Shown here piece after piece: positions 10,113 to 31,626 of a stretch of 64,000 nt of DNA. The notes beneath the pieces were generated by a model. The model did not search any database. It saw only the letters and a program-made list of their open reading frames with translations, and was not told where the DNA came from. Within the stretch, counting starts at the first letter, position 1; every line of letters begins with the position of its first letter. The stretch covers positions 5,839 to 69,838 of the forward strand of contig JBKJPY010000030.1 in NCBI GenBank assembly GCA_046594195.1, written 5' to 3'. This stretch comes from Acidimicrobiales bacterium. Lineage in GTDB: Bacteria; Actinomycetota; Acidimicrobiia; Acidimicrobiales; Iamiaceae. Both the position numbers and the translations under genes were made by a program.

Positions 10113-10126
10113 TAGAACACGTTCTC
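10113..10126. promoter_or_regulatory. KstR-type operator between divergent fadE-kstR and WS/DGAT
   Basis: TAGAACACGTTCTC. It overlaps the minus-strand -10 TAGTCT (10109-10114). Confidence 0.85.
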
Positions 10127-10197: not shown

Positions 10198-11700
10198 ATG
10201 GAACGTCTGACGGGGCTGGATGCAGCCTTCTTGTACCTGGAGAACCCCACCAACCACATGCACGTGGCGATGACCATGGTGCTCGATCCGTCCTCGGTGC
10301 CCGGCGGCTACACGTTCGAGAACCTCAAGCAGTTCATCGCCAACCGGGTGCACCTGGTTCCGCCGTTCACCCGCCGGCTCATCGAGGTCCCGCTCAACCT
10401 GGCGCACCCGGTGTGGGTCGAGGACCCCGACTTCGACATCGACTTCCACATCCGCCGCATCGGCTGCCCCTCGCCTGGCGGGCGCCGCGAGCTGGGCGAG
10501 ATGGCCGGCCAGATCGCCAGCACCCCCATCGACCGGTCGCGGCCCCTCTGGGAACTGTGGGTGATCGAGGGCCTCAAGCAGGATCGCATCGGCGTCGTCA
10601 CCAAGGTCCACCACGCGGCCATCGACGGCAGCTCCGGCGCCGACCTCATGGTCCACCTGTTCGACCTCGAGCCGGCACCCGCCGACCCGCCCCAGCTCAC
10701 CGAACGGACCTCCGAGCACATCCCCAACGACATGGAACTGCTCGGCCACGCCGCCGCGTCACGGTTCCGCAAGCTGGTTGCGCTGCCCAAGCTCCTGGGC
10801 GAGACCGTGGGCGCGGTCAACCGGGTCGCCGCCGGCCGTCGTGATCCCGACAAGCGGGTCGGCGCCGCACCGCTCACCGCGCCGCGCACCTCGTGGAACG
10901 GCAGCCTCTCCCCGATGCGCTCGGTGGGCTTCGCCCGCGTGACGCTCGACGAGGTCAAGGCCCTCAAGGACGCCTTCGGCTGCACGGTGAACGACGTCGT
11001 GCTCGGCCTGTGCGCTGGCACCCTGCGCTCCTACATGCTGGCCAACGAGGACGTGCCTGACACCCCGCTGGTGGCCGCCTGCCCCGTGTCGGTGCGAGCC
11101 GGCGATGACAGCGCGCCGGGCAACAAGGTCTCCGCCATGTTCGCCACGCTCGACACCCAACTCGAGGACCCGACGGAACGCATCCGAGCCATTCAGGCCT
11201 GCACGGTCGGAGCCAAGGAGGAGCATAAGGCCGTGGGTGCCGACATGCTCCAGAACTGGGCCGAGTACGCCGCTCCGAACACGTTCAACCTGGCCTCTCG
11301 GCTGTACTCCAGTTGGGGCCTCGCCGACAGCCACCGCCCGATCCACAACGTGATCATCTCGAACGTCCCCGGCCCCAACTTCCCGCTGTACTACGCCGGC
11401 GCCGAGATGGTCGCGGCGTACCCCATGGGTCCCGTCATGGAGGGCGTGGGCTTGAACATCACGGTGATGAGCTATCGGGGCTCGGTCGACTTCGGCTTCA
11501 TGGTCGACCGGGAGTTGGTGCCCGACGTCTGGGAGATGGCGGATCGAGTCAAGCCGGCCCTCGAAGAACTGCAGGCGGCGGCCGGCCTCTTGACGGCGAG
11601 CGCATCGAAGACGGAGGTCGCCGCGGTCCGTGCCAACGCCGATGCACCCACCGACAGCCCGCCTGCCAACGTCGCTCCCATGCGAGCCGATCTGACCTGA
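10198..11700 (+). CDS. Wax ester/triacylglycerol synthase (WS/DGAT) O-acyltransferase
   Basis: MERLTGLDAAFLYLE, the catalytic motif KVHHAAIDG, and ISNVPGP. Confidence 0.93.
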   Translation: MERLTGLDAAFLYLENPTNHMHVAMTMVLDPSSVPGGYTFENLKQFIANRVHLVPPFTRRLIEVPLNLAHPVWVEDPDFDIDFHIRRIGCPSPGGRRELGEMAGQIASTPIDRSRPLWELWVIEGLKQDRIGVVTKVHHAAIDGSSGADLMVHLFDLEPAPADPPQLTERTSEHIPNDMELLGHAAASRFRKLVALPKLLGETVGAVNRVAAGRRDPDKRVGAAPLTAPRTSWNGSLSPMRSVGFARVTLDEVKALKDAFGCTVNDVVLGLCAGTLRSYMLANEDVPDTPLVAACPVSVRAGDDSAPGNKVSAMFATLDTQLEDPTERIRAIQACTVGAKEEHKAVGADMLQNWAEYAAPNTFNLASRLYSSWGLADSHRPIHNVIISNVPGPNFPLYYAGAEMVAAYPMGPVMEGVGLNITVMSYRGSVDFGFMVDRELVPDVWEMADRVKPALEELQAAAGLLTASASKTEVAAVRANADAPTDSPPANVAPMRADLT

Positions 11701-11717
11701 CGGACCGTCAGGAAGAC

Positions 11718-15966: not shown

Positions 15967-16527
15967 ATGAGCCGACTCCCCAACCTCGACCCCGACGACC
16001 TCTCCGAGTCGCAGCAACGGCTCTATGCCTCGCTGCAGAATCGCCCTGAGGTCCAGGCACATGGCCTCGTCGGGCCGTTCGCCGTCTGGATGCACGCACC
16101 TGACCTCGGGGCACCGATGGCTGACCTCGGGGCCGGGATCCGCTTCCAGGCTTCGCTGCCCGCCAGCGCCACCGAGGTGGCGATCTGCACCACCGGTGCC
16201 TTCTACGGAGCCAGCTTCGAATTCGCCGCCCATCGTCCCCTTGCCCTCCGAGCGGGCGTCGACGAGGCCGCCCTCGACCGGCTCGCCGCAGGCGAGACCC
16301 CGGGCTTCGAGGGCGATGAGGCCGCCGCGTACGCGGTGGCGACCGAACTCCTCCAGGAGCACACCATCGGCGCCGCAACCTACGCAGATGCGGTCGAGCG
16401 CTTCGGCGTGCAGGGCGTGGTCGAGCTGGTGACGACGGTCGGGTACTACGGCCTCAACGCGCTGCTGCTCCACGCCTTCGAGATCCCCCTAGCCCCCGGC
16501 ATGGAGGATCCGCTCGCCGGGCGGTGA
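15967..16527 (+). CDS. Carboxymuconolactone decarboxylase/AhpD-like protein
   Basis: GPFAVWMHAP, EVAI..G....FEFAAH...A..AG, and GVVELV..VGYY. Confidence 0.8.
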   Translation: MSRLPNLDPDDLSESQQRLYASLQNRPEVQAHGLVGPFAVWMHAPDLGAPMADLGAGIRFQASLPASATEVAICTTGAFYGASFEFAAHRPLALRAGVDEAALDRLAAGETPGFEGDEAAAYAVATELLQEHTIGAATYADAVERFGVQGVVELVTTVGYYGLNALLLHAFEIPLAPGMEDPLAGR

Positions 16528-16532
16528 CCCGG

Positions 16533-16922
16533 CTACTTGTCGAGCTTGGCCTCGATACGGGCGAGGGCCTCGACGATGCGATCGGTCTGGGTCTGCTGTT
16601 CGACCACCATGCGAGCGAGCCAGAAGCGCAGCAGGCGGGCCAGCGAGAAGCGGATGAACAGGCCCACGCCGATGACCGCCAGGCCCAGGCCCAAGATGCC
16701 GCCCGAGATCAGCATCGGGACCTGGTCGGCCACGTACTTGGAACCCGACGAGGTCCAGTAGGCGGCGAGGATCAGGACCACGCCGACGATCGGGAGGATC
16801 AGGCCCAGCTTGAGCAGCAGCCGCTCGGCATCGGCCGAGGGTTCAGGGACGTGCAGGTCCTCGACGCCCAGTTCCAGGCGGTCGGCGGCGCTGGGCGCGT
16901 GGGTGGCGGTGGGATCGGTCAT
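16533..16922 (-). CDS. Small two-TM membrane protein, last gene of the Liv-type ABC operon
   Basis: ATG overlaps the livF stop. Two hydrophobic helices and 'FLRFWLAR..EQQ.QTDR'. Confidence 0.7.
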   Translation of the reverse strand: MTDPTATHAPSAADRLELGVEDLHVPEPSADAERLLLKLGLILPIVGVVLILAAYWTSSGSKYVADQVPMLISGGILGLGLAVIGVGLFIRFSLARLLRFWLARMVVEQQTQTDRIVEALARIEAKLDK

Positions 16923-17635
16923 GTGGGTGCTCCGAGGTAGGCGGCCGAGAGCTCGGCCTCGAGGTCTGCGGGTGGGCCGGCGGCGACGACGGTTCCGTGC
17001 TGCATGATCACGGCGTGGTCGGCGACGCCGAGGACGGTGCGGGCGAACTGCTCGACCACCAGGATCGACACCCCTTCGGTGGCGATGCCGGCGACGATCT
17101 CGTAGAGCTCGGCGACGATGAGCGGCGCCAGACCCATCGAGAGCTCGTCGATGATGAGCAGCCCCGGATCGGTGGCCAAGCCGCGCGCCATGGCGAGCAT
17201 CTGCTGCTCGCCACCCGACAACGTGCCGGCGACCTGGCCGATGCGCTCGCCGAGGCGGGGGAAGCGCGCCACCGCGGATTCGATGATCTGGTCGGCCGGG
17301 AGCCCGCGGTAGCTGGCCATGACCAGGTTCTCTCGAACGGTGAGGCTGCGGAACACGCCCCGACCCTCGGGGATGGTGCAGAGCCCGAGGCGGGCGAGCT
17401 CGTCGGGCTTGACGCCGTTCACGTGGCGGCCGCCGACGTGCACGCATCCGGACGATGCCGGGTGCTGGCCGGTGGCGACGAGCAGCGTGGTGGTCTTCCC
17501 CGCTCCGTTCGGTCCGAGCAGGGCCACCACCTGGCCGCGCGGCACCACCAGGTCGATCCCATGGAGCACCTCGATGCGGCCGTAGGTGGCACGGACGTCG
17601 CGAAGCTCGAGCAGCGGCGCGCCGATGGCGGTCAT
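16919..17635 (-). CDS. livF: HAAT ABC transporter ATPase (LivF type)
   Basis: GPNGAGKTT, LSGGEQQM, and IIDELSMGLAP. Confidence 0.9.
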   Translation of the reverse strand: MTAIGAPLLELRDVRATYGRIEVLHGIDLVVPRGQVVALLGPNGAGKTTTLLVATGQHPASSGCVHVGGRHVNGVKPDELARLGLCTIPEGRGVFRSLTVRENLVMASYRGLPADQIIESAVARFPRLGERIGQVAGTLSGGEQQMLAMARGLATDPGLLIIDELSMGLAPLIVAELYEIVAGIATEGVSILVVEQFARTVLGVADHAVIMQHGTVVAAGPPADLEAELSAAYLGAPT

Positions 17636-18360
17636 CCGGGTGCCCCCGGGTCCTGACCGAGGTACGCGTCGATGACCTCGGGGTTCTTCTGCACCTCGAT
17701 GGGCGATCCCGACGCGAGGACTTCGCCGAAGTTGAGCACGGTGATCTGGGCGCAGAGACGCATCACGAGCGGGACGTCGTGCTCCACGAGCAAGATGCCG
17801 AGCCCGTCACCCGTGAGGTCGATCAGGATCTCGGCGAAGCGGTCGGTCTCCTGCTCGTCGAGACCCGAGGCCGGCTCGTCGAGGAGCAGCACCCGGGGGT
17901 CGCATGCGAGGGCCCGCGCCAGCTCGACCAGGCGGGCGGAGCCGGTGGACAACGAATCAGCACGCTGCTGGGCGACGGCGGCGAGACCCACGCGCTCGAG
18001 CAGCTGATCGGTGACGACCTGGGGATCGGACCCGGCCTGCTTTCGCAGCTCGGCCGCCGTGAGCACGTTGTCGCGGACCGTCAGCGAGCCGAACAGCTCC
18101 AAGCGCTGGAAGGTCCGGGCGATGCCGCCGCGAGCCCGCTGATGGGCCGACATCGACGTGATGTCGTCGCCGTCGAGCACGACACGTCCACGGGTGGGTG
18201 CCTGGAGGCCGGTGATCACGTTGAACGTCGTGGTCTTGCCGGCGCCGTTCGGCCCGATGAGGCCGGTGATCTGGCCGGCATCGACCGACAGGCTGACGTC
18301 GTTGACGGCCAGGTGCCCGCCGAAGCGGACGGCGATCTCACGCGTCTCGAGGATCGGCAT
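17632..18360 (-). CDS. livG: HAAT ABC transporter ATPase (LivG type)
   Basis: GPNGAGKTT, LSTGSARL, LLLDEPASG, and VEHD. Confidence 0.9.
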   Translation of the reverse strand: MPILETREIAVRFGGHLAVNDVSLSVDAGQITGLIGPNGAGKTTTFNVITGLQAPTRGRVVLDGDDITSMSAHQRARGGIARTFQRLELFGSLTVRDNVLTAAELRKQAGSDPQVVTDQLLERVGLAAVAQQRADSLSTGSARLVELARALACDPRVLLLDEPASGLDEQETDRFAEILIDLTGDGLGILLVEHDVPLVMRLCAQITVLNFGEVLASGSPIEVQKNPEVIDAYLGQDPGAPG

Positions 18361-20455
18361 GGCACCTCCCCCAGCTCAGGCCCAGCTCGGCATCGATGGC
18401 CGCCCGCTCGTCGTCGGACAGGGAGCCGCCACCGGCGAGGACGAGCTCGGGGACGATCGCAGGTGGGGCGGGCGCCAGCAGCTCGACGGCCCGGTTGCGG
18501 TCGGCATTGGGCGTCGTGGCGTGGCGCTTCGCCCAGGCAGCGCGCACCTTGTCGGCGGTCTGGGCGATGGCGCCGTCGGGGTTGGCGGCCAGGCTGATGC
18601 CGGCCAGACCGGGAAGGACCGTCATGAGGTTCTGGAGGGCCGGATAGGTCTCGCCGATCAGCGGGAACACCGAGTAGAGGATCGCCCCCAGGAGGACACC
18701 GGCGACGGCTGCGATCCCGCCGACCACGGCCATCAGCGCGAGCGGTAGACCGGGGAGTGCACCTTGGAGCAAGGCGAACTGCTCGGTGCCGACCTTGCCG
18801 CGCCACCCTCCCAGCAGGGCACCGCCCAACCCGGCGATGGCCGCCGACAGGCCGAAGACCTGAAGCTTGAGTCGGGTGAGGTCCAAGCCCAGGGTGGCGC
18901 AGGCAGCCGGACTGTCCTTCATGGCCTGCAGCCGGCGGCCGAACGGGCCACGCCGGAGGACCGTGACGAGCAGGCCCAACAGCGCGAACACGACGGCCAT
19001 GAGCACCAGGTTCGCCCGGTTGCTGCTCGTGTCGATCGGACCGAGGTGGAGCCGCTCGTAGGTGGCGTCGCCCTGGTTGAACACGGGCACCCCGGCGAAG
19101 ACCGCCTTCTCGCAGAACAGGGCGAACGCCATCGTGGACAAGGCGAGGTAGAGGCCCTTCAGGCGCAGCGACGGCAAGGCGACGAGCGCGCCGACCACGG
19201 CGCAGACCGCGACCACCAGGACCAGGGCGAGCGGGTTGCCGTCGCTCCCCCACTGGTACATGACCAGTGCGCCGATCCCGGCGAAGGCCAGCGGCGCCAG
19301 CGAGATCTGCCCGCCGTAGCCCATGAGCGGCACCAGCGACAGGGCGACGATGCCGAGCGCCAGGCCGTACCCGACCGAGTCCAGGGCCTTGCCGTCGAGC
19401 AGCGACGGGATGGCGAAGGCGGCGACGATCAAGGCTCCGGACGCGAGGTACACAGAGCGCATCGACGGGTTCGGGACCCGGCTGCGGTCCGGCTGGCGGT
19501 GGAACAGCGATGCCTTCTCCTGCGGAAGCACCAGCAGGGCGATGAACAACATGATGACCGGGACGGTCTCGACGTTGATCCAGCCCGCCAGGGTGTGCAG
19601 GAGCCCGGCGACGCGCTCGGGAATCCAACCGGGCTCGGTGCCGGGTGCCATCCAGGCGTTGATGTCGGTCGAGTACCGCGAAGCGGCTTCGCGGAGCAGG
19701 CCGAGGATCACCGCACCCACCACGGTGAGCGGCAGGCTCCGCAGCCGGCCGACGACGGCGGCGGCGTAGGCGTTGATCACGAGCAGGGTCAGCGTGGTCT
19801 GGTCGAGGGTGAGGATCGGGGCGATGAGCACGCCGGCGACCGCGGCGAGCGTGCAGCCCACGGCCCACGACAGCGACGAGATCCGGTCGGGCGAGACGCC
19901 GTTGAGGCCGGCGAGCTCACGGCTGTCGACGACGGCCCGCATGGCCACGCCCACCCGTGTCCGGTACAGCAAGATCCGGAGGAAGACGGCGACCAGGATG
20001 GCGGCGACGAACACCACGATCTGGTGGTAGTCGACCCCGACCCCGAGGATCTTCACCACGTCGCCTTCGAAGAACCGGGGCAGGTTGCGGGACTCGGCCG
20101 GCGACCACACGACGGTGGCCAGCTGGATCAGCGCGACGAGGAGACCGATGGGCACCACGATGCGAGTGATCGGCGACGCGTCGTGGAGGCGCCGCATCAG
20201 CACCCGGTCGATCACGAACCCGAACGCCGGTGCGAACACGCCGAGGGTCAGCACCAGCGAGAGCCAGACCGGCAGACCCCACGCGTCGGGCGAGCTCAGT
20301 TGCCAGTAGACGAACGCCGCCCACATCGCCACCGCCCCATGGGCGAAGTTGAAGATTCCCGACGTCTGGTACGTGACCACGAGACCACTGGCGGCCACCG
20401 CGTAGATGGCCGCGCTCGCCAGCCCGAAGACCAGCAGGGCACCCAGCTCGTTCAT
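18338..20455 (-). CDS. Fused LivH-LivM type ABC permease
   Basis: SGIFNFAHGA, 'G.AMRAV..S..LA.L.G', GYGGQISL, and 'GR.L.A.KDS..A.A.LG'. Confidence 0.88.
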   Translation of the reverse strand: MNELGALLVFGLASAAIYAVAASGLVVTYQTSGIFNFAHGAVAMWAAFVYWQLSSPDAWGLPVWLSLVLTLGVFAPAFGFVIDRVLMRRLHDASPITRIVVPIGLLVALIQLATVVWSPAESRNLPRFFEGDVVKILGVGVDYHQIVVFVAAILVAVFLRILLYRTRVGVAMRAVVDSRELAGLNGVSPDRISSLSWAVGCTLAAVAGVLIAPILTLDQTTLTLLVINAYAAAVVGRLRSLPLTVVGAVILGLLREAASRYSTDINAWMAPGTEPGWIPERVAGLLHTLAGWINVETVPVIMLFIALLVLPQEKASLFHRQPDRSRVPNPSMRSVYLASGALIVAAFAIPSLLDGKALDSVGYGLALGIVALSLVPLMGYGGQISLAPLAFAGIGALVMYQWGSDGNPLALVLVVAVCAVVGALVALPSLRLKGLYLALSTMAFALFCEKAVFAGVPVFNQGDATYERLHLGPIDTSSNRANLVLMAVVFALLGLLVTVLRRGPFGRRLQAMKDSPAACATLGLDLTRLKLQVFGLSAAIAGLGGALLGGWRGKVGTEQFALLQGALPGLPLALMAVVGGIAAVAGVLLGAILYSVFPLIGETYPALQNLMTVLPGLAGISLAANPDGAIAQTADKVRAAWAKRHATTPNADRNRAVELLAPAPPAIVPELVLAGGGSLSDDERAAIDAELGLSWGRCHADPRDA

Positions 20456-20489
20456 CGCGTTGCGCTGCCGTGCGCGCGGAGCGCAGGCA

Positions 20490-21908
20490 TCAGCTCGACT
20501 TCAGCTTGGCGCCGCCGCCGAAGTCGTCTTCGAGGTCGTAGCGGTAGGAGTCGTCGCAGTCGAAGGTGGCGGCCTTCTTCGGCCAGAGGCGCTCGAACTT
20601 CCCGCCCTTGACCTCCATGTACATGAAGCAGCTGGAGCTCTTGTTCGCCCCGGGGTCGGCCAGGAAGTGCAGGCCGCCGCCGTCCCACGTGTGGATGGTC
20701 TTGAGCTCCTCGAGCAGCTTCGGACGGGTGAGGTCGTTGCCCAGTGCCTTGGCGGCGGTCGAGAAGAGCAGGCCTGCGGAGAACGCCTGGACGCCGAGGG
20801 ACGTGGGTTCCACCTTGGTGCCGAGCTTGTCGTAGGCGTCCAGGTACGCCTGGAGGGCCGGCGAGTCGTCGACCTCCTCGAACGGGACCGTGTTGAGCTG
20901 GACGATCGCACCCTCAGAGCCCGGCTCGGCGAGCAGATCCGGGTCGTAGTACTGCTGACCGAGGTCGATCACCTCGGGCTCGAAGCCCTGGGTCTTCATG
21001 TCCCGCAGGAGCTTGGCCGTCTCCGAGGTGGCCGACACCATGGTCACCCACTCGACGCCCTTGGCCTTCATCTCGGAGGCCTCGGTCGCGTAGCTCTCCT
21101 GGATGACGCCGGTGGTCTTGTCGTAGACGAAGTCGTACCCCTGCGCCTCGTACCCCTTCTTGATGCGCTCGGCCTGGACGGTGGCGGTCTCGATGGACGA
21201 GGCCAAGATGGCGGCCTTCTTCACGGCCTTCGGGTGTTCCTGCTTGACCCACTCGGCGCCGCCGATCGGGTAGAAGTTCGACGGGTTGGGAAGCGGGGCG
21301 ACGACGTTGTCACTGAGGCCCTTGGCCGCCGTCGCCGTGTAGGCGGGCACTTCGACGAGGCCGCAGTCGACCATCAGCTGGGCACCCTGGTTGTCGGTCA
21401 CCGAGCCGGAGCCCACGATGGCGAGCACGCCGGCGTTGCAGGCCTCTTTGGTGGCCTCCAGGTGGCTGAACAGCTTGGAGTCGATCTTGGTCAGCTCGAG
21501 CTTGCGGCCGTTGATGCCGCCGAAGCCGTTGCACCAGTCGACATACGCCTGCATCGACTCCTCGATGCTGGCCGTCGGCACCTTCACCTGGCCGGCCTTG
21601 TCCGAGATCACGGCAATCTTGATGGTGTCGGCCGTGACACCCTCGACCGCTTCGGTCGGCTGTGTCGGGGCTTGCTCACCCTTGCCGCAGGGTACGGCGA
21701 GGGTCCCGATCCTGGGTCCGCCCTCTCCGTCGGAGATGCCGGCACTGCCGGTTCCTCCAGCGCCACCAGCCCCATCGGTGCTCGCCGACGGACCCGACGC
21801 GCTTGCCGTCCCGCCCCCCGTCGCCAGCTCGTCATCGGACAACCGGCTGCCGCACGCCGTCGCCACGAGGGCAAAGGCGCAGCAGAGGGCAGCGACACGG
21901 ATCTTCAC
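20490..21908 (-). CDS. ABC transporter substrate-binding lipoprotein (periplasmic binding protein type 1)
   Basis: GTG start with RBS AAGGGGA, lipobox VATAC, a Gly-rich linker, and 'GVTADTIKIAV..D...CN..GGINGRKLEL'. Confidence 0.85.
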   Translation of the reverse strand: MKIRVAALCCAFALVATACGSRLSDDELATGGGTASASGPSASTDGAGGAGGTGSAGISDGEGGPRIGTLAVPCGKGEQAPTQPTEAVEGVTADTIKIAVISDKAGQVKVPTASIEESMQAYVDWCNGFGGINGRKLELTKIDSKLFSHLEATKEACNAGVLAIVGSGSVTDNQGAQLMVDCGLVEVPAYTATAAKGLSDNVVAPLPNPSNFYPIGGAEWVKQEHPKAVKKAAILASSIETATVQAERIKKGYEAQGYDFVYDKTTGVIQESYATEASEMKAKGVEWVTMVSATSETAKLLRDMKTQGFEPEVIDLGQQYYDPDLLAEPGSEGAIVQLNTVPFEEVDDSPALQAYLDAYDKLGTKVEPTSLGVQAFSAGLLFSTAAKALGNDLTRPKLLEELKTIHTWDGGGLHFLADPGANKSSSCFMYMEVKGGKFERLWPKKAATFDCDDSYRYDLEDDFGGGAKLKSS

Positions 21909-21963
21909 AAGCAGGTCCCCTTCAAGTGCTCGGCCAAGGAATGTAGCGCGGGCGCGATGGCGC

Positions 21964-21982
21964 ACCTGACGCCCCGTCAGGT
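21964..21982. terminator. Hairpin between fadE27 and the binding-protein gene
   Basis: ACCTGAC-GCCCC-GTCAGGT. A possible minus-strand -10 TACATT lies at 21940-21945. Confidence 0.35.
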
Positions 21983-21990
21983 CTTGGCGG

Positions 21991-23112
21991 TCACCCTGCA
22001 GCGAGCAGTGCGCCGAGGCGCCGGAGGTGGGTGGTCCCGCCTCCCAGGGAGAGCTCCAGGTGCTTCGCCCACCGGAACGTGCGGTGCACCGGGTAGTCGG
22101 TATCGACGCCGATCCCGCCGTGGAGGTGCTGTGCCGCGTGGACGACGCGGTGCGCGCCGTCGGCCGCCCAGAACTTGGCGATGGCCAGTTCCTCGGCCGC
22201 CGGGAGTCCCTCGCCCAGCCGCCACGCGGCCTGGTACGCCGTGAGGCGGACCGCCTCGGTGTCGATGTAGGCGTCGGCCGCACGGTGGGCGACGGCCTGG
22301 AAGGTGGCGATCGGCGTGTCGAACTGCTTGCGCTCGCTCGTGTAGGTCGCCGTGATGCGGAGCGCGGCCTCGCAGACGCCGGCCACGACGGCGCAGGTGG
22401 CCGCAACGGCACGATCCGCGATCCATTCGGTGACCGCAGCGCCCCCGTCGACCGCGCCGACGACGTCGGCGGCGCTAACGGCAACCCCATCGAAGGTGAA
22501 CGTCGTGAGCGGCTCCAGGTTCGGGCCGTGGTTGACCTCGGCGGAGACGCCAGCGGCGGTCGGATCGACCAGGAAGACCGTGGACGTGCCGTCACCGGTG
22601 CGAGCGGGCACCAGGACCCGAGCGGCATGGACGGCGCCGGGGACCAGGTGCTTGGTCCCGCTGATGGTCCACCCGTCGCCGGAGGCCGTTGCGGTGGTGG
22701 TCGGAACCTCGGGCGGCAGGCCATCGGCGCCTTCGGAGAGCGCGGCGGTCAAGATCACCGAGCCGTCGATCACCCCCGGGAGCCAGGAAGCCTGCTGATC
22801 GGCCGAGCCGAACTCGGCGAGGGGCAGTGCACCGAGGACGAGGGTCGACAGCACCGGAAGGGGTGCCACGGCGCGGCCCACCTGTTCGAGGACGAGCGCC
22901 AGCTCGAAGAAGCCGAAGCCGCCGCCGCCGTGCGCCTCGGGCAGCGAGAGGCCCAGGAGGTCTGCCTTGGCCAGCTCGGCCCACGTGTCGGCGGCGAACC
23001 AGTCGTCGCCGGCCTCGATGTCGCGGAGCCGCTCCGCCGGGAGCTGCTCGCCCAGGATCCGGGCGGCGAGGTCGCGCAGGGAGGTCTGCTCGTCTGAGAG
23101 TGCGAAGTCCAT
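21991..23112 (-). CDS. fadE27: Acyl-CoA dehydrogenase beta subunit, FadE27/ChsE5-like
   Basis: RKQFDTPIATFQAV.HR.AD.YID and AQHLHGGIGVD.DYP.HR. Lies directly downstream of fadE26. Confidence 0.82.
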   Translation of the reverse strand: MDFALSDEQTSLRDLAARILGEQLPAERLRDIEAGDDWFAADTWAELAKADLLGLSLPEAHGGGGFGFFELALVLEQVGRAVAPLPVLSTLVLGALPLAEFGSADQQASWLPGVIDGSVILTAALSEGADGLPPEVPTTTATASGDGWTISGTKHLVPGAVHAARVLVPARTGDGTSTVFLVDPTAAGVSAEVNHGPNLEPLTTFTFDGVAVSAADVVGAVDGGAAVTEWIADRAVAATCAVVAGVCEAALRITATYTSERKQFDTPIATFQAVAHRAADAYIDTEAVRLTAYQAAWRLGEGLPAAEELAIAKFWAADGAHRVVHAAQHLHGGIGVDTDYPVHRTFRWAKHLELSLGGGTTHLRRLGALLAAG

Positions 23113-23122
23113 GAGGTGTCTC

Positions 23123-24304
23123 CTACATCCGTGGCATGCGGGGCATGCCCAAGCCGAACATGGCGATGAGGTCGCGCTGGATCTCGTTCACGCCTCCGCC
23201 GAAGGTCAAGATCAGCGAGCCCTGGGCGCCCCGGTTGATGCGCGAGGCCAGCACCGCCGCTGGTGAGTCGGTCGTGAGGTTCGCTGCCTGGCCGAGGATC
23301 TCGCCGAGCAACTGGTAGGCGTCGGTGAAGAACTCCGTGCCGAAGACCTTGATGGAGCTGGCGTCGGCCGGGTTGACCTGCTCGCCGGCCGCCTCCAGGG
23401 CCGCCACCTTCCAGTTCAGGAGCGTCAGGAACTCGATCCCGGAACGGACCCGAGCCAGATTGAGCTGCACCCACTCCTGGTCGATCACCCGCCGACCGTC
23501 GGGCAGGGTCGTCTCCCGTGCCCAGGCAAGGGTGTCCTCGTAGGTGCGCTCGATCATCCCCGGCGGGGCGAGGCCAACCCGTTCGTAGTTGAGCTGGTTG
23601 ATGATGAGGCCCCAGCCGCCGTGGAGCTCGCCCAAGATGGCGGAGTCCGGCACCTTCACGTCGTCGTAGTACGTGTGGAACGTGCTGGCGTTCACCATCG
23701 TGTGGATCTTCGTGTACGAGTACCCGGGATCGGTGGTGGGCACGAGGAACATCGTGATGCCCTTGTGCTTGGGGGCATCGGGATCGGTGCGCGCCGCAAG
23801 CCAGATGTAGTCGGCGTAGCTCGCCAGCGACGTGTAGGTCTTCTGTCCGTTGATCACCCATTCATCGCCGTCCTTGACGGCCTTCGTGGTGAGCGACGCC
23901 AGGTCGGTGCCGGCCCCGGGCTCGGTGTAGCCGATGGAGAAGTGGAGCTCGCCGGCGAGGATCTTCGGGAGGAAGAAGTCCTTCTGCTCCTGCGTGCCGA
24001 ACTGCATGATCGTCATGGCGACGGTGTTGACCGACAGGAAGGGCGTCGGGGCACCGGCTCGCCAGGACTCGTTCATGAAGATGAACTGCTCGACCGGCCC
24101 GAAGCCACGGCCTCCGTACTCCTCGGGCCAGCCCACGCCGAGCCAGCGGTCGCGGCCCATCTGCCGGACGGCATCGAGGCACGCCGGGCTTCCGGTCTCC
24201 CCCGCCGCGGTCGCAGCGATGACCTCCGGGGTCATGAGGTCGGCGAAGTAAGTGCGCAACTCCTTGCGGAGGGCTTCCTGCTCGGGCGTGAACGCAATCT
24301 GCAC
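23123..24304 (-). CDS. fadE26: Acyl-CoA dehydrogenase alpha subunit, FadE26/ChsE4-like
   Basis: I.FTPEQE.LR.ELR.YF..LMTPE, LHFSIGYTEPGAGTDLA, QLNYERV, EWVQLNLARV, and LILTFGGG.NE.QRD. Confidence 0.88.
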   Translation of the reverse strand: MQIAFTPEQEALRKELRTYFADLMTPEVIAATAAGETGSPACLDAVRQMGRDRWLGVGWPEEYGGRGFGPVEQFIFMNESWRAGAPTPFLSVNTVAMTIMQFGTQEQKDFFLPKILAGELHFSIGYTEPGAGTDLASLTTKAVKDGDEWVINGQKTYTSLASYADYIWLAARTDPDAPKHKGITMFLVPTTDPGYSYTKIHTMVNASTFHTYYDDVKVPDSAILGELHGGWGLIINQLNYERVGLAPPGMIERTYEDTLAWARETTLPDGRRVIDQEWVQLNLARVRSGIEFLTLLNWKVAALEAAGEQVNPADASSIKVFGTEFFTDAYQLLGEILGQAANLTTDSPAAVLASRINRGAQGSLILTFGGGVNEIQRDLIAMFGLGMPRMPRM

Positions 24305-24330
24305 GGGAACTCCTGACGGTCCATCAGAAC

Positions 24331-24344
24331 TAGAACACGTTCTA
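24331..24344. promoter_or_regulatory. KstR-type operator upstream of fadE26
   Basis: TAGAACACGTTCTA, a perfect consensus match. Confidence 0.9.
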
Positions 24345-24411
24345 GCAGAAGGCTCGTCAGCGGTCCCTGGTCGGCGGCCCGACCGCCCGCTCCCCCGCCT
24401 AAGATTCGTCG

Positions 24412-25548
24412 ATGCGGGAATCGGTCATTCGCGCGTCCAACCCGGAGGCGGACGAACACGGGATCACGTGGACTGGGTCGTTCACCCCACCCGGCGACGA
24501 ACCCGCGGTGACCACCTTCCGGTTCGGATCACCCACCGGCGGGGGTCCTCCGCCATCTGCTCGCCCATTCGTGCTGGCGTTCCTGCCGGCGGCGATGCGG
24601 GTGGGCGCACCCGTCCGCATCGACGGGCCGATCGATGGCACCACCCTCGCCAGCCTGTTGGAGTGGCAAGAGGCGATGGCCGCTTGGCACCCCGGCGAGT
24701 TCCAGGTCGTTTCGCTTCGGGCCGACGCCGGCACGACGCCGAGCGTCGCCGCCCCATCGGACGCACCCAGGGGTGCGGTCTCAGCCTTCTCCGGTGGGGT
24801 CGACAGCTGCTTCACCGCGGTTCGGCATCGACCGGGCGCAGCGATCGATGCCGAACGGGACCCGCAGCGGCGGACCGAGGTTCGCGCCGGACTCTTCGTG
24901 CACGGCTTCGACATCGCCCGAGACGACGAGGACACCTACCTGGCCGCCCGCACCCGGGTCTCGGGGATCCTCGAGGGCCTCGCCATCGAGCCGATGTGGC
25001 TCCAGACCGACATCCGAGCCCTCGAGCGACGGTGGCCCCTGGACTGGGAAACCACGAGCCACGGCATCTGGCTCGCCGCTGCACTGGCGTGCGTGGAGCA
25101 CTGGTTCGACCTGGCGATCATCCCCTCCACCTTCAGCTACCCCGTGCTCGAGCTCCCATGGGGGTCCAACCCGATCACCGATCCGCTGCTCGGCTCGGAC
25201 CGGGTGCCGATGTGGCACGACGGGGCCGCCTTCAACAAGGCCGCCAAGGTCCGGGCGCTCGCCGGCCACCGGTCCGTCGAGGCGGGCCTCCGGGTGTGCT
25301 GGTCCGGCGACCGGCTCGACCGGAACTGCGGACGTTGCATGAAGTGCGTCGCCACGCAGGTCTGCTTCTGGATGTATGGCGTCGATGAGCCGGCATGCTT
25401 CGACGCAGGGGCGACCGTGGCCGACCTCGCGAAGCTCCGCGTCCGCAAGCCCTACCAGCGTCCGATCCTCGATCAGATCCGCCGCGCCGCCCTCGATGCT
25501 GGTCGTCCCGACATCGCTGACGCGTGCGCCCAGGTCGTGGCCCGATGA
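24412..25548 (+). CDS. QueC-like PP-loop ATPase-fold protein of unknown function
   Basis: PP-loop AFSGGVDS and C-x9-CxxCxxC (RVCW...NCGRCMKC). -10 TAAGAT lies 6 nt before the ATG. Confidence 0.7.
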   Translation: MRESVIRASNPEADEHGITWTGSFTPPGDEPAVTTFRFGSPTGGGPPPSARPFVLAFLPAAMRVGAPVRIDGPIDGTTLASLLEWQEAMAAWHPGEFQVVSLRADAGTTPSVAAPSDAPRGAVSAFSGGVDSCFTAVRHRPGAAIDAERDPQRRTEVRAGLFVHGFDIARDDEDTYLAARTRVSGILEGLAIEPMWLQTDIRALERRWPLDWETTSHGIWLAAALACVEHWFDLAIIPSTFSYPVLELPWGSNPITDPLLGSDRVPMWHDGAAFNKAAKVRALAGHRSVEAGLRVCWSGDRLDRNCGRCMKCVATQVCFWMYGVDEPACFDAGATVADLAKLRVRKPYQRPILDQIRRAALDAGRPDIADACAQVVAR

Positions 25549-25946
25549 CCGGTTCGGCCGATCCGTGGCTCGAGCGGTTCGCCGCGCTCGTGCGCGCTCG
25601 GGACGTGAGCGGCGCACTCCTCTTGTTCTCGCCCGACGTCGCTGCGTTCGGCACGAGGGTCAACGTGGCGTTCGGGCTCGACGAACTGTTGTCCCAGCAG
25701 TGGGAGCCCATCTGGACGTCCACCCGTGACTTCGACTTCGACACGGGCGGCCGCTGGGAGCAGCGGGCCGGCGACGGGGACCTCCTGGTGGTGGCGTGCA
25801 CCTGGATGTCGCAGGGATTCGACGACGACGCCACCCCGTTTCCCCGCCGGGGCCGCGCCACCGTCGCCCTGGCGCGCTCATCGCAGAACGACACCGGGTG
25901 GGTGGCGGTTCACACCCACTTCAGCGAGTCGCCGACCGCCTGGTGA
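25545..25946 (+). CDS. SnoaL/NTF2-like fold protein
   Basis: ATGA overlap with the previous gene. 'RDV..AL.LF.PDV..FGT', 'GRAT..L', and 'W..VH.HFS'. Confidence 0.72.
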   Translation: MTGSADPWLERFAALVRARDVSGALLLFSPDVAAFGTRVNVAFGLDELLSQQWEPIWTSTRDFDFDTGGRWEQRAGDGDLLVVACTWMSQGFDDDATPFPRRGRATVALARSSQNDTGWVAVHTHFSESPTAW

Positions 25947-26794: not shown

Positions 26795-27277
26795 ATGAGC
26801 CAGCCCGTGGATTCCGCAGGACGACCGATCGTCGCCGAACAGGTCGAGACCCGACCAGCCGCCGCCTCCGCCGGGTTGCGCGTCTTCCAGATCGCCTCCG
26901 CCATCGCGGGCGGGGTCTTGTTCGTCTTCGGCCTCATGGCGATCTTCAAGGTCGACTTCGACGCCGACGTCCTCGACACCTCCGCCTCCGTCGCCGGCTA
27001 CGGGTTCTCCGCGGTCGCCGCCATCGCCGCCATCTTGTTGGGCGGCGCCACCTTGGTGTCGACGCTGGCCGACCAAGACCGCGGCTCCTCGGCGTTCGTC
27101 GGGCTCATCACCATCGCCCTCGGCATCGCGGCGCTGGTCGTCGAAGGCCAGTCAGAGTCGGATCTGCAGGTGGACAACCGCTCTGCGGCGCTGTTCATCA
27201 CCCTCGGCGCCGTGGTGTTCGTCTGCTCGCTCGTGCCCTGGTGGTCGCGGCGACGGGTCACCACCGTCGTTCGCTGA
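26795..27277 (+). CDS. Hypothetical membrane protein (about four TM helices)
   Basis: Strong RBS (AAGGGAG), ATG start, and hydrophobic segments. Confidence 0.7.
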   Translation: MSQPVDSAGRPIVAEQVETRPAAASAGLRVFQIASAIAGGVLFVFGLMAIFKVDFDADVLDTSASVAGYGFSAVAAIAAILLGGATLVSTLADQDRGSSAFVGLITIALGIAALVVEGQSESDLQVDNRSAALFITLGAVVFVCSLVPWWSRRRVTTVVR

Positions 27278-27352
27278 CCCCAGCCGGGGTCAGCGAACTC
27301 AGCGTCTTCGGTCCTTTGCCTGTGGTTCGCGCTGGCCGAGCCAGGCCCGAAG

Positions 27353-27368
27353 TTGACCGGTCGGTCAA
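27353..27368. promoter_or_regulatory. Palindromic operator candidate upstream of the P450
   Basis: TTGACC-GGTC-GGTCAA. Confidence 0.55.
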
Positions 27369-27438
27369 GTTGGTCCTCGGGAACGCGTTACCGTCTCGGA
27401 CGGCCACGACCCACCCCTGGGCCGACGAAGGGAACGCC

Positions 27439-28725
27439 ATGAGCACCGGAGAACTGACCATCGGCAACGCCGAGTTCTGGCGCCGGCCCTTGCAGGAACG
27501 GATGGACGACTTCGCCGCCATGCGGGCCGAGTCGCCCTTCACCCGGTCGACGATCCCGAACCTCATGACCAACGAGGTGGACGAGTTCTTCGCCGTTACG
27601 GCCTACGCGGAACTGGTCGAGATCAGCCGCCACCCCCAGGACTTCTGCTCGGGCAAGGGCTCGGTGAACATCTCCGACATGCCGACCGAGGCGCTCGAGT
27701 TCTTCGGCTCATTCATCGCCATGGATGATCCGAAGCACGCCCGCCAGCGCGCCATCGTGGCCCGGTCGTTCACGCCGCGGAAGCTCCAGGGCGTCCTTGA
27801 CTCGGTCGAGACGATCTGCACCGAGGTCATCGACGACATGTGCGAACAGGGCGAGGTCGACCTGGTCGAGGCCCTCTCCCAGCCGTTCCCGCTCTTGGTC
27901 ATCTGCGACATGATGGGCATCCCGCGTAGCGAGTTCGACACCGTCTTGCGGGCCACGAACGTCATCCTCGGCGGTGGCGACCTCGAGATGATGGGCCTCT
28001 CCGGGGACACCGTGGACCCGAACGCGCTCATGGGTGCCTTCTTCAACGCCGGCGTGGAACTGATCGGCCTGATGAACGAGCTGGCAGAGTTCCGGCGCAA
28101 GAACCCCACCGATGACCTGACCTCGGCCTTGGTCCACAACGACCTCGGCGAGGACATGCTCACTCCGGAGGAGATCGGGCCGTTCTTCATCCTGCTCGCC
28201 GTCGCCGGCAACGACACGACCCGCACGGCGCTGAGCCACGGCATGCACCTGCTCTCGCAGAACCCCGACCAGCGCGCGATCTGGCAGGACGACCTCGACG
28301 GCGTCACGCCGACTGCCGTCGACGAGATCGTGCGGGTCGCCTCGCCGGTCACCTTCATGCGCCGCACGGTCACCCACGACCTCACCCTGTCGGGCCACGA
28401 CTTCAAGACGGACGACAAGCTCATCCTCTTCTACGGCGCAGCGAACCGCGACCCGCTCGTGTTCGAGGATCCCGACCGCTTCGATGTCCGCCGTGACCCC
28501 AACCCCCACGTGGGCTTCGGCGGCCCAGGCCCCCACTTCTGCCTCGGCGCCCACCTCGCCCGCCGGGAGCTGTCCGTCGCGTTCCGTCAGCTCCTCACCC
28601 GGCTCCCCGACATCGAGCTGACCGGCGAGCCCGTCCTGCTCAATGCCCTCGGGGTCCCGCTCGTGGGCGGCATCAAGCACCTCCCGGTGCGCTTCACCCC
28701 CACTGCCCGGGTCGGCGCTGCCTGA
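27439..28725 (+). CDS. Cytochrome P450, CYP124-like (methyl-branched lipid/steroid omega-hydroxylase family)
   Basis: FGS.IAMDDPKH.R.R.IV.R.FTP, FFILL.VAGNDTTR, EIVR.ASPV..MRRT, and the heme motif GFGGPGPHFCLG. Confidence 0.92.
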   Translation: MSTGELTIGNAEFWRRPLQERMDDFAAMRAESPFTRSTIPNLMTNEVDEFFAVTAYAELVEISRHPQDFCSGKGSVNISDMPTEALEFFGSFIAMDDPKHARQRAIVARSFTPRKLQGVLDSVETICTEVIDDMCEQGEVDLVEALSQPFPLLVICDMMGIPRSEFDTVLRATNVILGGGDLEMMGLSGDTVDPNALMGAFFNAGVELIGLMNELAEFRRKNPTDDLTSALVHNDLGEDMLTPEEIGPFFILLAVAGNDTTRTALSHGMHLLSQNPDQRAIWQDDLDGVTPTAVDEIVRVASPVTFMRRTVTHDLTLSGHDFKTDDKLILFYGAANRDPLVFEDPDRFDVRRDPNPHVGFGGPGPHFCLGAHLARRELSVAFRQLLTRLPDIELTGEPVLLNALGVPLVGGIKHLPVRFTPTARVGAA

Positions 28726-29634: not shown

Positions 29635-30480
29635 TCAGGCCTTGCGAACGAGCTCCACGCTGACCTCGAGCTCCTGGTCGGCGCGACCGGCATAGATGCC
29701 CCGGAAGGGGGCCACATCGTGGTAGTCCCGGCCGGCGGCGACGCGGATGTGGCGCTCCTCGACCGGGTTCAGGCTGGTGGGGTCCAGTGGCCAGACCGTG
29801 CCCGTGAACGCCGCGACCCACGCGTGGCTCTCCCCGATGATGGCCTCGTCGATGGCCGCCTTCGGGTTGGGGTGCAGGTAGCCCGAGACGTACCACGAGG
29901 GGATGCCCATCGCCCGCAGCAGTGCGAGCGACACGTGGGCGAAGTCCTGGCAGACGCCGGACCCCGCGACGAGGACCTCGGGGGTCGTCGTGCGCACGCC
30001 CGTGCTGCCCTTCCGGTACTCCAGCCGCTCGTGGACCCACGCGACTGCGGCCTGCGCGGCGGCTGCAGGCGTGTCGTGCGCGGCGGCCAGGCCGGCAGCC
30101 ACCTCGGCCAGCTCGCCGTCCCACGTGACGGTGTCGGTGGGGACCAGCAGCTCCTCGAACTGGTCGCGGATGTCCGGATCGGCGAGTTCGGCCCACGAGG
30201 CGTCGCCGACCTGGGCCAGCTCGGTGGCCGTCTCCACCGTCGCCCGACCGATGACCGTCAGCGCCTGGTGCGGCACCTGCACGTCGAAGTGGTGAACCAC
30301 CGAGCCCCAGTAGTCGACGTGGCGGACGACCCGGGTGGACGGCTCCACCTCGACCCGGCTCGCCAGCACCGCCTGGTGCCGGTCGCTGCGGGGCTCGAGC
30401 CGCGCTTCGTTGTAGGACTGCGCCACGGGAGCGGAGTACCGGTACTTCGTCGTGTGCGTCACCTGCAGCCGCCACGTCAT
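29635..30480 (-). CDS. Transglutaminase-like protein with N-terminal domain
   Basis: V.HTT.Y.Y, the catalytic Cys in GVCQDFAH, SHAW, DPT, and GRDY.DV.P. Confidence 0.92.
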   Translation of the reverse strand: MTWRLQVTHTTKYRYSAPVAQSYNEARLEPRSDRHQAVLASRVEVEPSTRVVRHVDYWGSVVHHFDVQVPHQALTVIGRATVETATELAQVGDASWAELADPDIRDQFEELLVPTDTVTWDGELAEVAAGLAAAHDTPAAAAQAAVAWVHERLEYRKGSTGVRTTTPEVLVAGSGVCQDFAHVSLALLRAMGIPSWYVSGYLHPNPKAAIDEAIIGESHAWVAAFTGTVWPLDPTSLNPVEERHIRVAAGRDYHDVAPFRGIYAGRADQELEVSVELVRKA

Positions 30481-30482
30481 CG

Positions 30483-30678
30483 GATCATCCTCATGCTGGC
30501 GATCATCCTCATGCCGGGCGGTCCACGTTCCACTTCGTCGCCGTGCGTGCGCACGCCGTCGACCACGTTCCCGACGCGACACGGCTGTACGGCCCCGTGC
30601 TGGTTGCGAGTGGAACGTGGCCCGCCTGATGTGTGGGGTTCGCTTTCATCCTCATGCCGGGCGGTCCACGTTCCACTC
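30483..30678. repeat. Complex direct, inverted and tandem repeat structure between alpha-E and the transglutaminase
   Basis: 32-bp direct repeat (30503-30534 = 30646-30677), an inverted copy 30608-30626 (18/19), and a tandem GATCATCCTCATGC at 30483 and 30501. Confidence 0.85.
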
Positions 30679-31626
30679 GATGAACGCGGCGCGCTGGAAG
30701 TAACGCTGGGTGACGAGCTCGCTGGCGTGGGCGCAGGCGGCCTGGAGGCGCATGACCGTGCCGTTCAGGTCGGCGGCGAGGGCGGCCGGTTCCGTGTAGG
30801 CCAGCTCGCTTCGGATGCGCCCGACCTCTCGGGCCGCCGCGCTGGTGCGGGGTTGGGCCTGGCGGCGACCGCTGGGGCCCGTGGACCCGTCGACCTGCTC
30901 CAGGCACATCTCGGCTTGGGCGAGGGCGTAGTTGACCGACCGGGGGAAGTCCGGGTCGAGCAACAAGATGCTGAGGGCCTTGGCTTGGTCGATGTCGCCC
31001 CCGTAGGTGCGCAAGAAGGCGTCGTTGGCCCCGCACGACACCAGCACGCCGCTCCAGCGAGACGCATCGGCGGTTGCCGGCACCGCTCCGAGCAGCCGGG
31101 CGGTCATGTCGACCCGCTCGAGACACCGCCCGATGGTGAGAAACCGCCAGCCGTCGTCGTGCAGCAGCACCGTGTCGGTCAGACCGCCGACGAGCGCGAC
31201 GCGGTCGCGCACCCACTGGAACAGCAGGTGTGGACCGAGGGTCCGAGCGGCTCGCACGTGGTTGTCGAGCTCGTGGTAGGTCCGGTTGAGCGATTCCCAG
31301 ACCTCGGTGGCCAAGATCTCGCGCAGGCCGCGGGCGTTCTCGCGAGCCAGGCGCAGCGATCCCACGACCGAACTGGGGTTGTCGGCGTCGTAGGCCAGCA
31401 TCTCGGTCGCCTGCCAGAGATCGATGGGTCCATCGGTCGAGTCGCCGATGCGGGCCAGCTCGGACGGATCCAGGCCCATGGCCGCAAGGAGCGACGCCCC
31501 CACGCGATCGTCGTTGACCTGCACCACCATGCGGTGGACGTACACGTCCAGCAGGCGGGCGGTGTCATCGGCCCGCTCGAGGTAGCGGCCCATCCAGTAC
31601 AGGGCTTCGGCGATGCGGCTCAGCAT
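30652..31626 (-). CDS. Alpha-E domain protein (DUF403)
   Basis: MLSRIAE.LYWMGRYLERAD.TARLLD, RENAR..RE....EVWE.LN, GR.LER.DMTAR, and FPRSV. Confidence 0.92.
   Translation of the reverse strand: MLSRIAEALYWMGRYLERADDTARLLDVYVHRMVVQVNDDRVGASLLAAMGLDPSELARIGDSTDGPIDLWQATEMLAYDADNPSSVVGSLRLARENARGLREILATEVWESLNRTYHELDNHVRAARTLGPHLLFQWVRDRVALVGGLTDTVLLHDDGWRFLTIGRCLERVDMTARLLGAVPATADASRWSGVLVSCGANDAFLRTYGGDIDQAKALSILLLDPDFPRSVNYALAQAEMCLEQVDGSTGPSGRRQAQPRTSAAAREVGRIRSELAYTEPAALAADLNGTVMRLQAACAHASELVTQRYFQRAAFIEWNVDRPA

Follow-up and report, generated by a model that had tools for sequence, protein, structure and literature searches.

A 64,000-nucleotide stretch of contig JBKJPY010000030.1 (assembly GCA_046594195.1, positions 5,839 to 69,838 of the forward strand; the window, hereafter) from a soil member of the Acidimicrobiia carries a block of seven genes. 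In this block, the two subunits of a ChsE4–ChsE5-type acyl-CoA dehydrogenase are followed by a Liv-type importer and by a small protein with two predicted transmembrane (TM) helices. The interpretation that we favor, with a confidence slightly better than even, is that the transporter imports a hydrophobic or methyl-branched carboxylic acid and feeds a β-oxidation pathway controlled by the regulator KstR and by a second palindromic operator, here called P2. The genetic linkage between transporter and dehydrogenase, the distribution of the two operators, and the gene content of the surrounding regulon carry this interpretation and are presented below, together with the alternatives of a steroid importer, of an ordinary amino-acid importer, and of a P2 element acting in RNA.

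A Liv-Type Importer Is Encoded Directly behind chsE4–chsE5

The source assembly (G000; 3.86 Mb, 70% G+C, 97% complete) represents an Aquihabitans-like soil bacterium, and the public DNA runs that contain the window sequence are soil metagenomes. The features of the locus, in their order of transcription on the minus strand, are as follows.

24329–24344, minus strand: KstR operator CTAGAACGTGTTCTAG, with its core TAGAACNNGTTCTA at 24331–24344, upstream of chsE4
24312–24328, minus strand: second operator, P2, TCTGATGGACCGTCAGG, directly after the KstR box and ending 7 nt before the chsE4 GTG start
23123–24304, minus strand: chsE4 (fadE26-like), α subunit of an α2β2 acyl-CoA dehydrogenase, 393 residues, with all three acyl-CoA dehydrogenase Pfam domains
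21991–23112, minus strand: chsE5 (fadE27-like), β subunit, 373 residues, assigned by Pfam
21965–21981, minus strand: P2 operator CCTGACGGGGCGTCAGG, a conserved palindrome in the spacer between chsE5 and the binding-protein gene
21940–21945, minus strand: −10-like hexamer TACATT, at 19 nt downstream of P2; the GTG start of the binding-protein gene follows 31 nt further downstream
20490–21908, minus strand: substrate-binding lipoprotein (substrate-binding protein, SBP), 472 residues, GTG start, Peripla_BP_6, type I periplasmic-binding-protein fold
18338–20455, minus strand: fused LivH–LivM permease, 705 residues, with two BPD_transp_2 stretches
17632–18360, minus strand: LivG-type ATPase, 242 residues, ABC_tran with a BCA_ABC_TP_C tail
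16919–17635, minus strand: LivF-type ATPase, 238 residues, ABC_tran
16533–16922, minus strand: two-TM protein, 129 residues, whose ATG overlaps the LivF stop codon (ATGA)

The order chsE4, chsE5, SBP, LivHM, LivG, LivF, and two-TM protein, together with the KstR box in front of it, had been described in an earlier note on this DNA, and both the coordinates and the Pfam assignments bear out the positions given there. According to the coordinates, LivHM and LivG overlap by 23 nt, and the LivG/LivF and LivF/two-TM junctions overlap by 4 nt each, the latter as ATGA. With the SBP fold, two BPD_transp_2 domains, and distinct LivG and LivF ATPases, the system falls into the HAAT family (TC 3.A.1.4, Liv type), and the predicted products form a genuine Liv/HAAT-type importer.

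The best solved relative of ChsE4 is 4X28_A, from an acyl-CoA dehydrogenase complex of Mycobacterium tuberculosis (467 bits, E = 6e-139), followed by Tcur3483 of Thermomonospora curvata; those of ChsE5 are 6WY8_A (Tcur3481, 273 bits, E = 3e-80) and 4X28_D (212 bits, E = 2e-61). Other acyl-CoA dehydrogenases score far lower against the two proteins, at about 126–133 bits. The chains of 4X28 are FadE26–FadE27, also called ChsE4–ChsE5. By these scores, the two proteins encoded here are closely related to the enzymes solved from M. tuberculosis and T. curvata. Acyl-CoA dehydrogenases of the source genome match the pimC_large and pimD_small models. On the minus strand of contig C14 (G000:C14:57523-59820), a fused acyl-CoA dehydrogenase of 765 residues with a β-like (IpdE2/PimD-like) and an α-like (PimC-like) half is encoded, and its gene lies directly behind a KstR box.

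The SBP begins with a signal peptide, at whose end stands the invariant lipobox cysteine, Cys19; a low-complexity Gly/Ser-rich linker follows, and six further cysteines are invariant. Signal peptide, cysteine, and linker fit a lipid-anchored extracytoplasmic protein. The sequence matches Peripla_BP_6 (PF13458, E = 3.8e-33), and an AlphaFold2 model (pLDDT, the predicted local confidence score, 85.7) retrieved LivJ-type structures with a probability of 1.00 in Foldseek. Among the matches listed, the highest query TM-score (0.64) belongs to 4N03, deposited as a T. curvata 'Fatty acid ABC transporter substrate-binding protein'; by sequence, too, 4N03 is the best match of the SBP in the PDB (E = 2.6e-7, about 20% identity). 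4N03 is likewise actinobacterial and adopts the type I fold; its ligand is known from the title of the deposit alone, and the match is a hint at the ligand class of the SBP rather than a test of it. All 467 named significant homologues of the SBP come from Acidimicrobiia or from unclassified Actinomycetota metagenome-assembled genomes, the closest named ones from Aquihabitans (Iamiaceae).

An orphan paralogue, 64% identical to the SBP and lacking a permease of its own, is encoded on the minus strand at G000:C95:110517-111923, divergent from a gene for a 770-residue protein that reads by sequence as arylsulfatase-like. This paralogue may be a second binding protein for the same transporter.

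The Linkage between Transporter and Dehydrogenase Is Conserved

A scan of one genome per species yielded 79 loci, all in Acidimicrobiia-type genomes. In tblastn comparisons with the seven proteins, SBP, fused LivHM, LivG, LivF, and two-TM protein constitute a conserved module that also occurs in many paralogous loci without fadE genes, where the upstream genes encode alpha/beta hydrolases, additional binding proteins, or histidine kinases. In every orthologous locus with sufficient sequence (L007–L015 and L017), chsE4–chsE5 lies directly upstream of the SBP gene, and the same arrangement recurs in the more distant loci L021–L025, L027, L028, L030, L033, L038, L039, and L055. The KstR box keeps the same position upstream of chsE4 in L007–L015.

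A maximum-likelihood tree of 76 SBPs places 19 of the 23 fadE-linked proteins in a single clade of 25 rows (support 100/99); the fadE-linked proteins outside this clade are those of L033/L038/L039 and L055. Linkage is clustered on the tree, requiring 6 changes compared with 19.9 expected, a value as low as which was reached in none of 500 shuffles, and it persists down to about 41% SBP identity. Synteny and clustering on the tree indicate that the linkage between the fadE and SBP genes is old and has been maintained, which in turn argues for a functional link. The placement of the transporter beside fadE26–fadE27 and behind a KstR box, as first noticed in the window, thus holds for its relatives as well.

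The KstR Box at chsE4 Belongs to a Probable Side-Chain and Lipid Regulon

The chsE4 promoter contains a perfect copy of the KstR operator consensus TnnAACnnGTTnnA. Genome-wide, the motif occurs at 4 perfect and 11 one-mismatch sites, compared with 0 for six composition-matched permuted palindromes. Six of the sites lie inside the window, as does the sole KstR-like TetR gene of the genome (~8268–8850), and the window further encodes a FadD19-like ligase, EchA19, and a CYP124/125-like cytochrome P450. The genes located at KstR boxes include those for the FadD19-like ligase (733 bits to PRK07798), EchA19, and a wax-ester synthase, as well as an Rv3520c-family F420 oxidoreductase, the fused acyl-CoA dehydrogenase, and a KshA-family Rieske protein. 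These are side-chain- or lipid-type genes.

Within the window, a KstR box at 10113 separates a PimC-like acyl-CoA dehydrogenase gene (~8872–10086, minus strand, followed by the kstR-like gene) from a wax-ester synthase/DGAT gene (~10207–11700, plus strand). The position of this box between the two divergent genes would place lipid storage and lipid catabolism under one operator.

Two promoters are suggested to serve the seven-gene block. At chsE4, the KstR box and P2 stand in tandem, and this promoter would integrate both inputs, with P2 bound by a second regulator of lipid catabolism. An internal promoter ahead of the SBP gene would respond to P2 alone. Since the spacer between chsE5 and the SBP gene contains P2 and no KstR box, membership of the transporter in the KstR regulon depends on read-through from chsE4–chsE5.

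A Model for Import and β-Oxidation

In the model that we favor, the five downstream genes would encode an importer in which an anchored binding lipoprotein and the fused LivHM permease are joined by the ATPases LivG and LivF and by a two-TM accessory protein specific to the lineage. Its substrates would be taken up from outside the cell and would comprise long-chain or methyl-branched/isoprenoid acids, possibly including sterol-side-chain acids. These would be activated by neighboring KstR-controlled acyl-CoA ligases (FadD19-like) and then dehydrogenated by ChsE4–ChsE5, the bulky-substrate α2β2 acyl-CoA dehydrogenase encoded just upstream. From the sequence we infer four elements of this model: the substrate class, co-transcription of the genes, the function of the operators, and the role of the two-TM protein as a subunit.

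Several observations weigh against the model. The resemblance of the SBP to 4N03 is weak at the identity and E-value reported above, and in Foldseek, binders of amino acids, aromatic acids, urea, and fatty acids match the SBP model about equally well. β-Oxidation-type enzymes serve branched-chain amino-acid catabolism too, so that co-regulation with such enzymes is also compatible with an amino-acid substrate. P2 precedes genes that read by sequence as GAPDH and transketolase, which indicates that its regulon is broader than lipid catabolism. The relatives that lack Mce systems (see below) are mostly metagenome-assembled genomes. Finally, none of the RNA runs searched contained the source organism. 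A small run from 2016 listed as 'RNA?', the type being a guess, represents a relative of about 90% identity, and its contigs cover the whole operon (window 16400–24500); a single contig extends across chsE5 and the SBP gene, the spacer being replaced in it by 79 other letters. These contigs carry no strand or expression meaning.

A Possible Steroid Importer in Place of Mce4

In mycobacteria, the importer encoded beside fadE26–fadE27 is Mce4, which is under KstR control. An alternative, which we consider unlikely, is that the Liv-type system is a dedicated sterol or steroid-acid importer of the Acidimicrobiia that replaces Mce4 and supplies cholesterol-derived or bile-acid-like substrates to ChsE4–ChsE5. 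The perfect KstR box ahead of the operon, the orthology of the dehydrogenase to the complex in 4X28, and the FadD19-like, EchA19-like, KshA-family, and Rv3520c-family genes at KstR boxes all speak for it, as does the distribution of Mce systems. No match to the MlaD/Mce domain (PF02470) was found in the window, in agreement with the earlier note; this lack does not extend to the genome, where contig C19 carries a single mce operon with six MlaD proteins, two YrbE proteins, and an Mkl-like ATPase. This operon has neither a KstR box nor a P2 site, and its Mce proteins, whose best matches in the PDB reach only 60 bits, are too divergent in sequence for an Mce1-like or Mce4-like label. Eight of 10 relatives with the chsE4–chsE5–liv operon, most of them metagenome-assembled genomes of unknown completeness, lack any MlaD/Mce domain, and the mce operons of the two Mce-bearing relatives are likewise devoid of KstR and P2 sites. 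The scarcity of Mce systems among the relatives and the lack of either operator at the existing mce operons support the Liv-type system, rather than Mce, as the importer tied to the regulon. The presence of one Mce operon in the source genome counts against the steroid-importer reading.

The gene content is at odds with canonical steroid-ring degradation. In the 97%-complete genome, an HsaC/BphC-type extradiol dioxygenase was not found (best TIGR03213 score, 20 bits), nor was an IpdE2 orthologue (best NF050027 score, 165 bits against a cut-off of 450). Without HsaC and IpdE2, the genome lacks the canonical 9,10-seco steroid-ring pathway, and the KstR regulon, with its 15 good boxes, appears to govern side-chain and lipid β-oxidation in the absence of a steroid-ring pathway. 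HsaC-like genes were noted in five relatives; the one examined, in Aquihabitans G128, was rejected as HsaC with a score of 172 against the cut-off of 450. It lies among Mrp antiporter genes, and no KstR box was present in either region scanned. The P450 of the window (27241–28725, plus strand), whose gene lacks its own KstR box, is most similar to CYP124 (331 bits) and next to CYP125-type enzymes, with about 304 bits to reconstructed ancestors and 225–242 bits to natural enzymes. CYP124 is an ω-hydroxylase of methyl-branched lipids. In addition, the promoter proposed for the transporter itself carries P2 and not a KstR box.

Steroid uptake, the substrate proposed as a candidate in the earlier note, is therefore not established by these data. 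Sterol uptake is possible and is not the best-supported substrate assignment; a bulky or methyl-branched hydrophobic acid fits the gene content better. A literature search returned nothing relevant on KstR or steroid degradation with Liv-type transporters, on steroid degradation in Acidimicrobiia, or on 4N03.

A KshA-family gene is present in this genome that lacks HsaC. On contig C18 (G000:C18:3359-6537), two KstR boxes surround genes for the KshA-family Rieske oxygenase, an amidohydrolase-like protein, and the Rv3520c-family F420 oxidoreductase; the Rieske protein scores 154 bits against 4QDC, the oxygenase of 3-ketosteroid 9α-hydroxylase.

The Alternative of an Ordinary Amino-Acid Importer

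Automatic annotation would make the system an importer of branched-chain or hydrophobic amino acids, with the adjacency to chsE4–chsE5 reflecting a shared use of β-oxidation-like enzymes on the carbon skeletons of amino acids or having no functional meaning. The HAAT domain set, including the BCA_ABC_TP_C tail, is that of such transporters, the top fold matches of the SBP include binders of Leu/Ile/Val, and paralogous modules of the same architecture occur in unrelated contexts. This reading is nevertheless unlikely. Against it stand the linkage to chsE4–chsE5, which extends across a deep clade, to SBPs of as little as about 41% identity, and to members outside the clade, and the operator shared with genes for acyl-CoA ligase, acyl-CoA dehydrogenase, enoyl-CoA hydratase, and thiolase.

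The P2 Palindrome as a Proposed Operator

In the spacer between chsE5 and the SBP gene, the earlier note had pointed to a hairpin (21964–21982) and a possible internal −10 element that could uncouple the transporter from KstR. The palindrome P2, of 17 bp with the form TCTGACG-N3-CGTCAGA, is kept in this spacer in the window and in 11 related loci, while the remainder of the spacer has diverged. As an intrinsic terminator the hairpin was rejected: a U-tract is missing, no site resembling a terminator was found, and the spacer folds with the same energy as shuffled sequences (z = 0.02). Conservation of the arms at the level of sequence points instead to an operator. What stands of the earlier proposal is a conserved, separate regulatory site ahead of the transporter, consisting of P2 and the −10-like box. 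A TAnnnT box follows P2 at 18–19 nt in L007, L008, L010, L013, L014, L017, and L022 and at 2–3 nt in the Iamia group; a scan of the TACATT region for the sigma-70 consensus gave no match. Given the conservation of P2 and the −10-like box 19 nt downstream of it, the transporter most likely has a P2-carrying promoter of its own, under a second regulator of lipid catabolism.

The palindrome is strongly enriched. In the source genome, it occurs without mismatch at 10 sites, with one mismatch at 16, and with two at 22, compared with 0, 0–3, and 0–11 for permuted controls, and all 10 relatives contain it, with 1–12 perfect copies each and 0 control matches. The sites precede genes for acyl-CoA dehydrogenases, enoyl-CoA hydratases, a thiolase, an acyl-CoA ligase, a short-chain dehydrogenase/reductase, and a ChsH2-type OB-fold protein, as well as a gene that reads by sequence as methylmalonyl-CoA mutase. 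One site in the window, at 11696–11712, lies ahead of the FadD19-like gene. The tandem of KstR box and P2 at chsE4 is kept in the window and in L007, L008, L009, L010, L013, and L015 (the Aquihabitans clade); in more distant loci, only P2 or only the KstR box is found there. The second module of the genome with a two-TM protein, on contig C29, has a P2-like site about 65–200 bp upstream of its SBP gene, depending on the start chosen. By its distribution, P2 looks like the operator of a global regulator in Acidimicrobiia. No candidate for this regulator was found: the genome has the one KstR-like TetR protein, and no obvious autoregulated transcription-factor gene lies beside a P2 site.

The proposal that P2 acts in RNA, as a hairpin in the 5′ untranslated region or as an attenuator that uncouples the transporter from chsE4–chsE5, is very unlikely. 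In its favor, a 7-bp stem with a 3-nt loop could form, many sites lie only 15–60 nt ahead of start codons, and at chsE4 the ribosome-binding site AGGAG is overlapped by the right arm. Against it, conservation of the arms concerns their sequence and not pairing alone, with the loop free to vary; the palindrome is followed by no U-tract, and the spacer folds no better than shuffles; the spacing of P2 to the −10-like box is fixed; and sites in divergent intergenic regions serve both strands, as is typical of the site of a dimeric repressor.

The Two-TM Protein Is a Lineage-Wide Partner of the Module

A gene for the two-TM protein begins 0–130 nt after LivF in about 50 related loci, among them paralogous modules that lack fadE genes. 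When 30 members are aligned, an amphipathic segment at the N terminus is followed by two TM helices with a short loop between them, and the basic motif R-F/Y-S-L-x-R-x-L-R-F-W-L-x-R is conserved where the chain leaves the membrane. An AlphaFold2 model (pLDDT 85) contains a helix at residues 12–22, TM1 at 30–58, and a long helix at 64–128, which in the model is TM2 with a basic cytoplasmic extension. A profile search retrieved 1,670 cluster representatives at E ≤ 0.001, 505 of them at E ≤ 1e-10; all named members are Acidimicrobiia proteins annotated as 'hypothetical protein' and assigned to no Pfam family. The protein of the window matched no Pfam family, and a fold search against the PDB returned nothing below E = 1.

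The suggestion that this protein is an unrecognized accessory subunit of the importer is upheld insofar as it is a conserved component of about 50 loci and, in the window, apparently translationally coupled through the ATGA overlap; a specific tie to this operon is not borne out, as the gene also follows LivF in unrelated contexts. The two-TM protein is best described as an accessory component that accompanies this HAAT subfamily throughout the lineage, beyond the lipid-linked operon, and as a putative subunit of the importer.

Relationship to Known Transport Systems

The pimFABCDE operon of Rhodopseudomonas palustris encodes PimC/PimD, an acyl-CoA dehydrogenase with two subunits (large/small) that is, in type, like FadE26/27. 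As in the window, a Liv-type transporter stands beside a β-oxidation operon with a two-subunit dehydrogenase. The R. palustris Liv-type binding proteins RPA3723 and RPA3724, whose genes adjoin pimFABCDE, bind fatty and dicarboxylic acids; most R. palustris proteins whose annotation names them binders of branched-chain amino acids failed to bind Leu/Ile/Val, and some members of the HAAT family are known to bind aromatic, fatty, or dicarboxylic acids (PMC3223731). In contrast to these proteobacterial, periplasmic proteins with their different regulation, the SBP studied here is a predicted lipoprotein from a monoderm actinobacterium, and control would be exerted through KstR and P2. The present system also has a fused permease and, coupled to livF, a gene for an additional two-TM protein.

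The E. coli LivJ/K–HMGF system, the HAAT prototype, shares the domain families, the order of functions, and the SBP fold. It differs in the sequence of its binding protein (about 16% identity), while the fused permease, the lipid-anchored SBP, the two-TM protein, and the lipid-catabolism context with its operators distinguish the present system. Mce4 of Mycobacterium and Rhodococcus occupies the same functional slot in its gene cluster as the Liv-type importer does here, and is built differently, from six MlaD-domain proteins, two YrbE permeases, and MceG, none of which is encoded at the chsE4–liv locus. A HAAT importer linked to the operon of an α/β acyl-CoA dehydrogenase would accordingly be of a kind already known; the two-TM partner and the dual-operator control would be new. 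Little credence is given to the full conjunction in which the system is an uptake route of the Acidimicrobiia for sterol-side-chain or isoprenoid acids or sterols, the two-TM protein is an obligatory subunit, and control is shared by KstR and a new global repressor of lipid catabolism that binds TCTGACG-N3-CGTCAGA.

Uptake of sterols and bulky lipids in Actinobacteria is understood almost solely through Mce systems. The Acidimicrobiia are a poorly studied group that reaches high abundance in soil, in freshwater, and in the sea; they keep a KstR regulon and ChsE4–ChsE5, mostly without Mce and consistently paired with the Liv-type importer. If the SBP were to bind such lipids, a second and simpler class of importers for bulky lipids would be defined, the widespread annotation as 'branched-chain amino acid transporter' would be corrected, and a tractable soluble protein would be at hand for ligand screening. 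Two by-products of the analysis are a conserved family of small membrane proteins linked to a single HAAT subfamily and a strongly enriched palindromic operator that would define a lipid-catabolism regulon.

Neighboring Genes

Divergent from chsE4, on the plus strand (window 24412–25946), lie genes for a 378-residue protein without a Pfam or NCBIfam match and for a SnoaL-like protein. As the intergenic region with the KstR and P2 sites is common to both sides, this pair may be co-regulated with chsE4. Farther away, on the minus strand (window 29635–33236), a conserved trio of genes unrelated to the importer encodes a transglutaminase-like protein, a protein with an Alpha-E domain, and an ATP-grasp protein of the circularly permuted kind.

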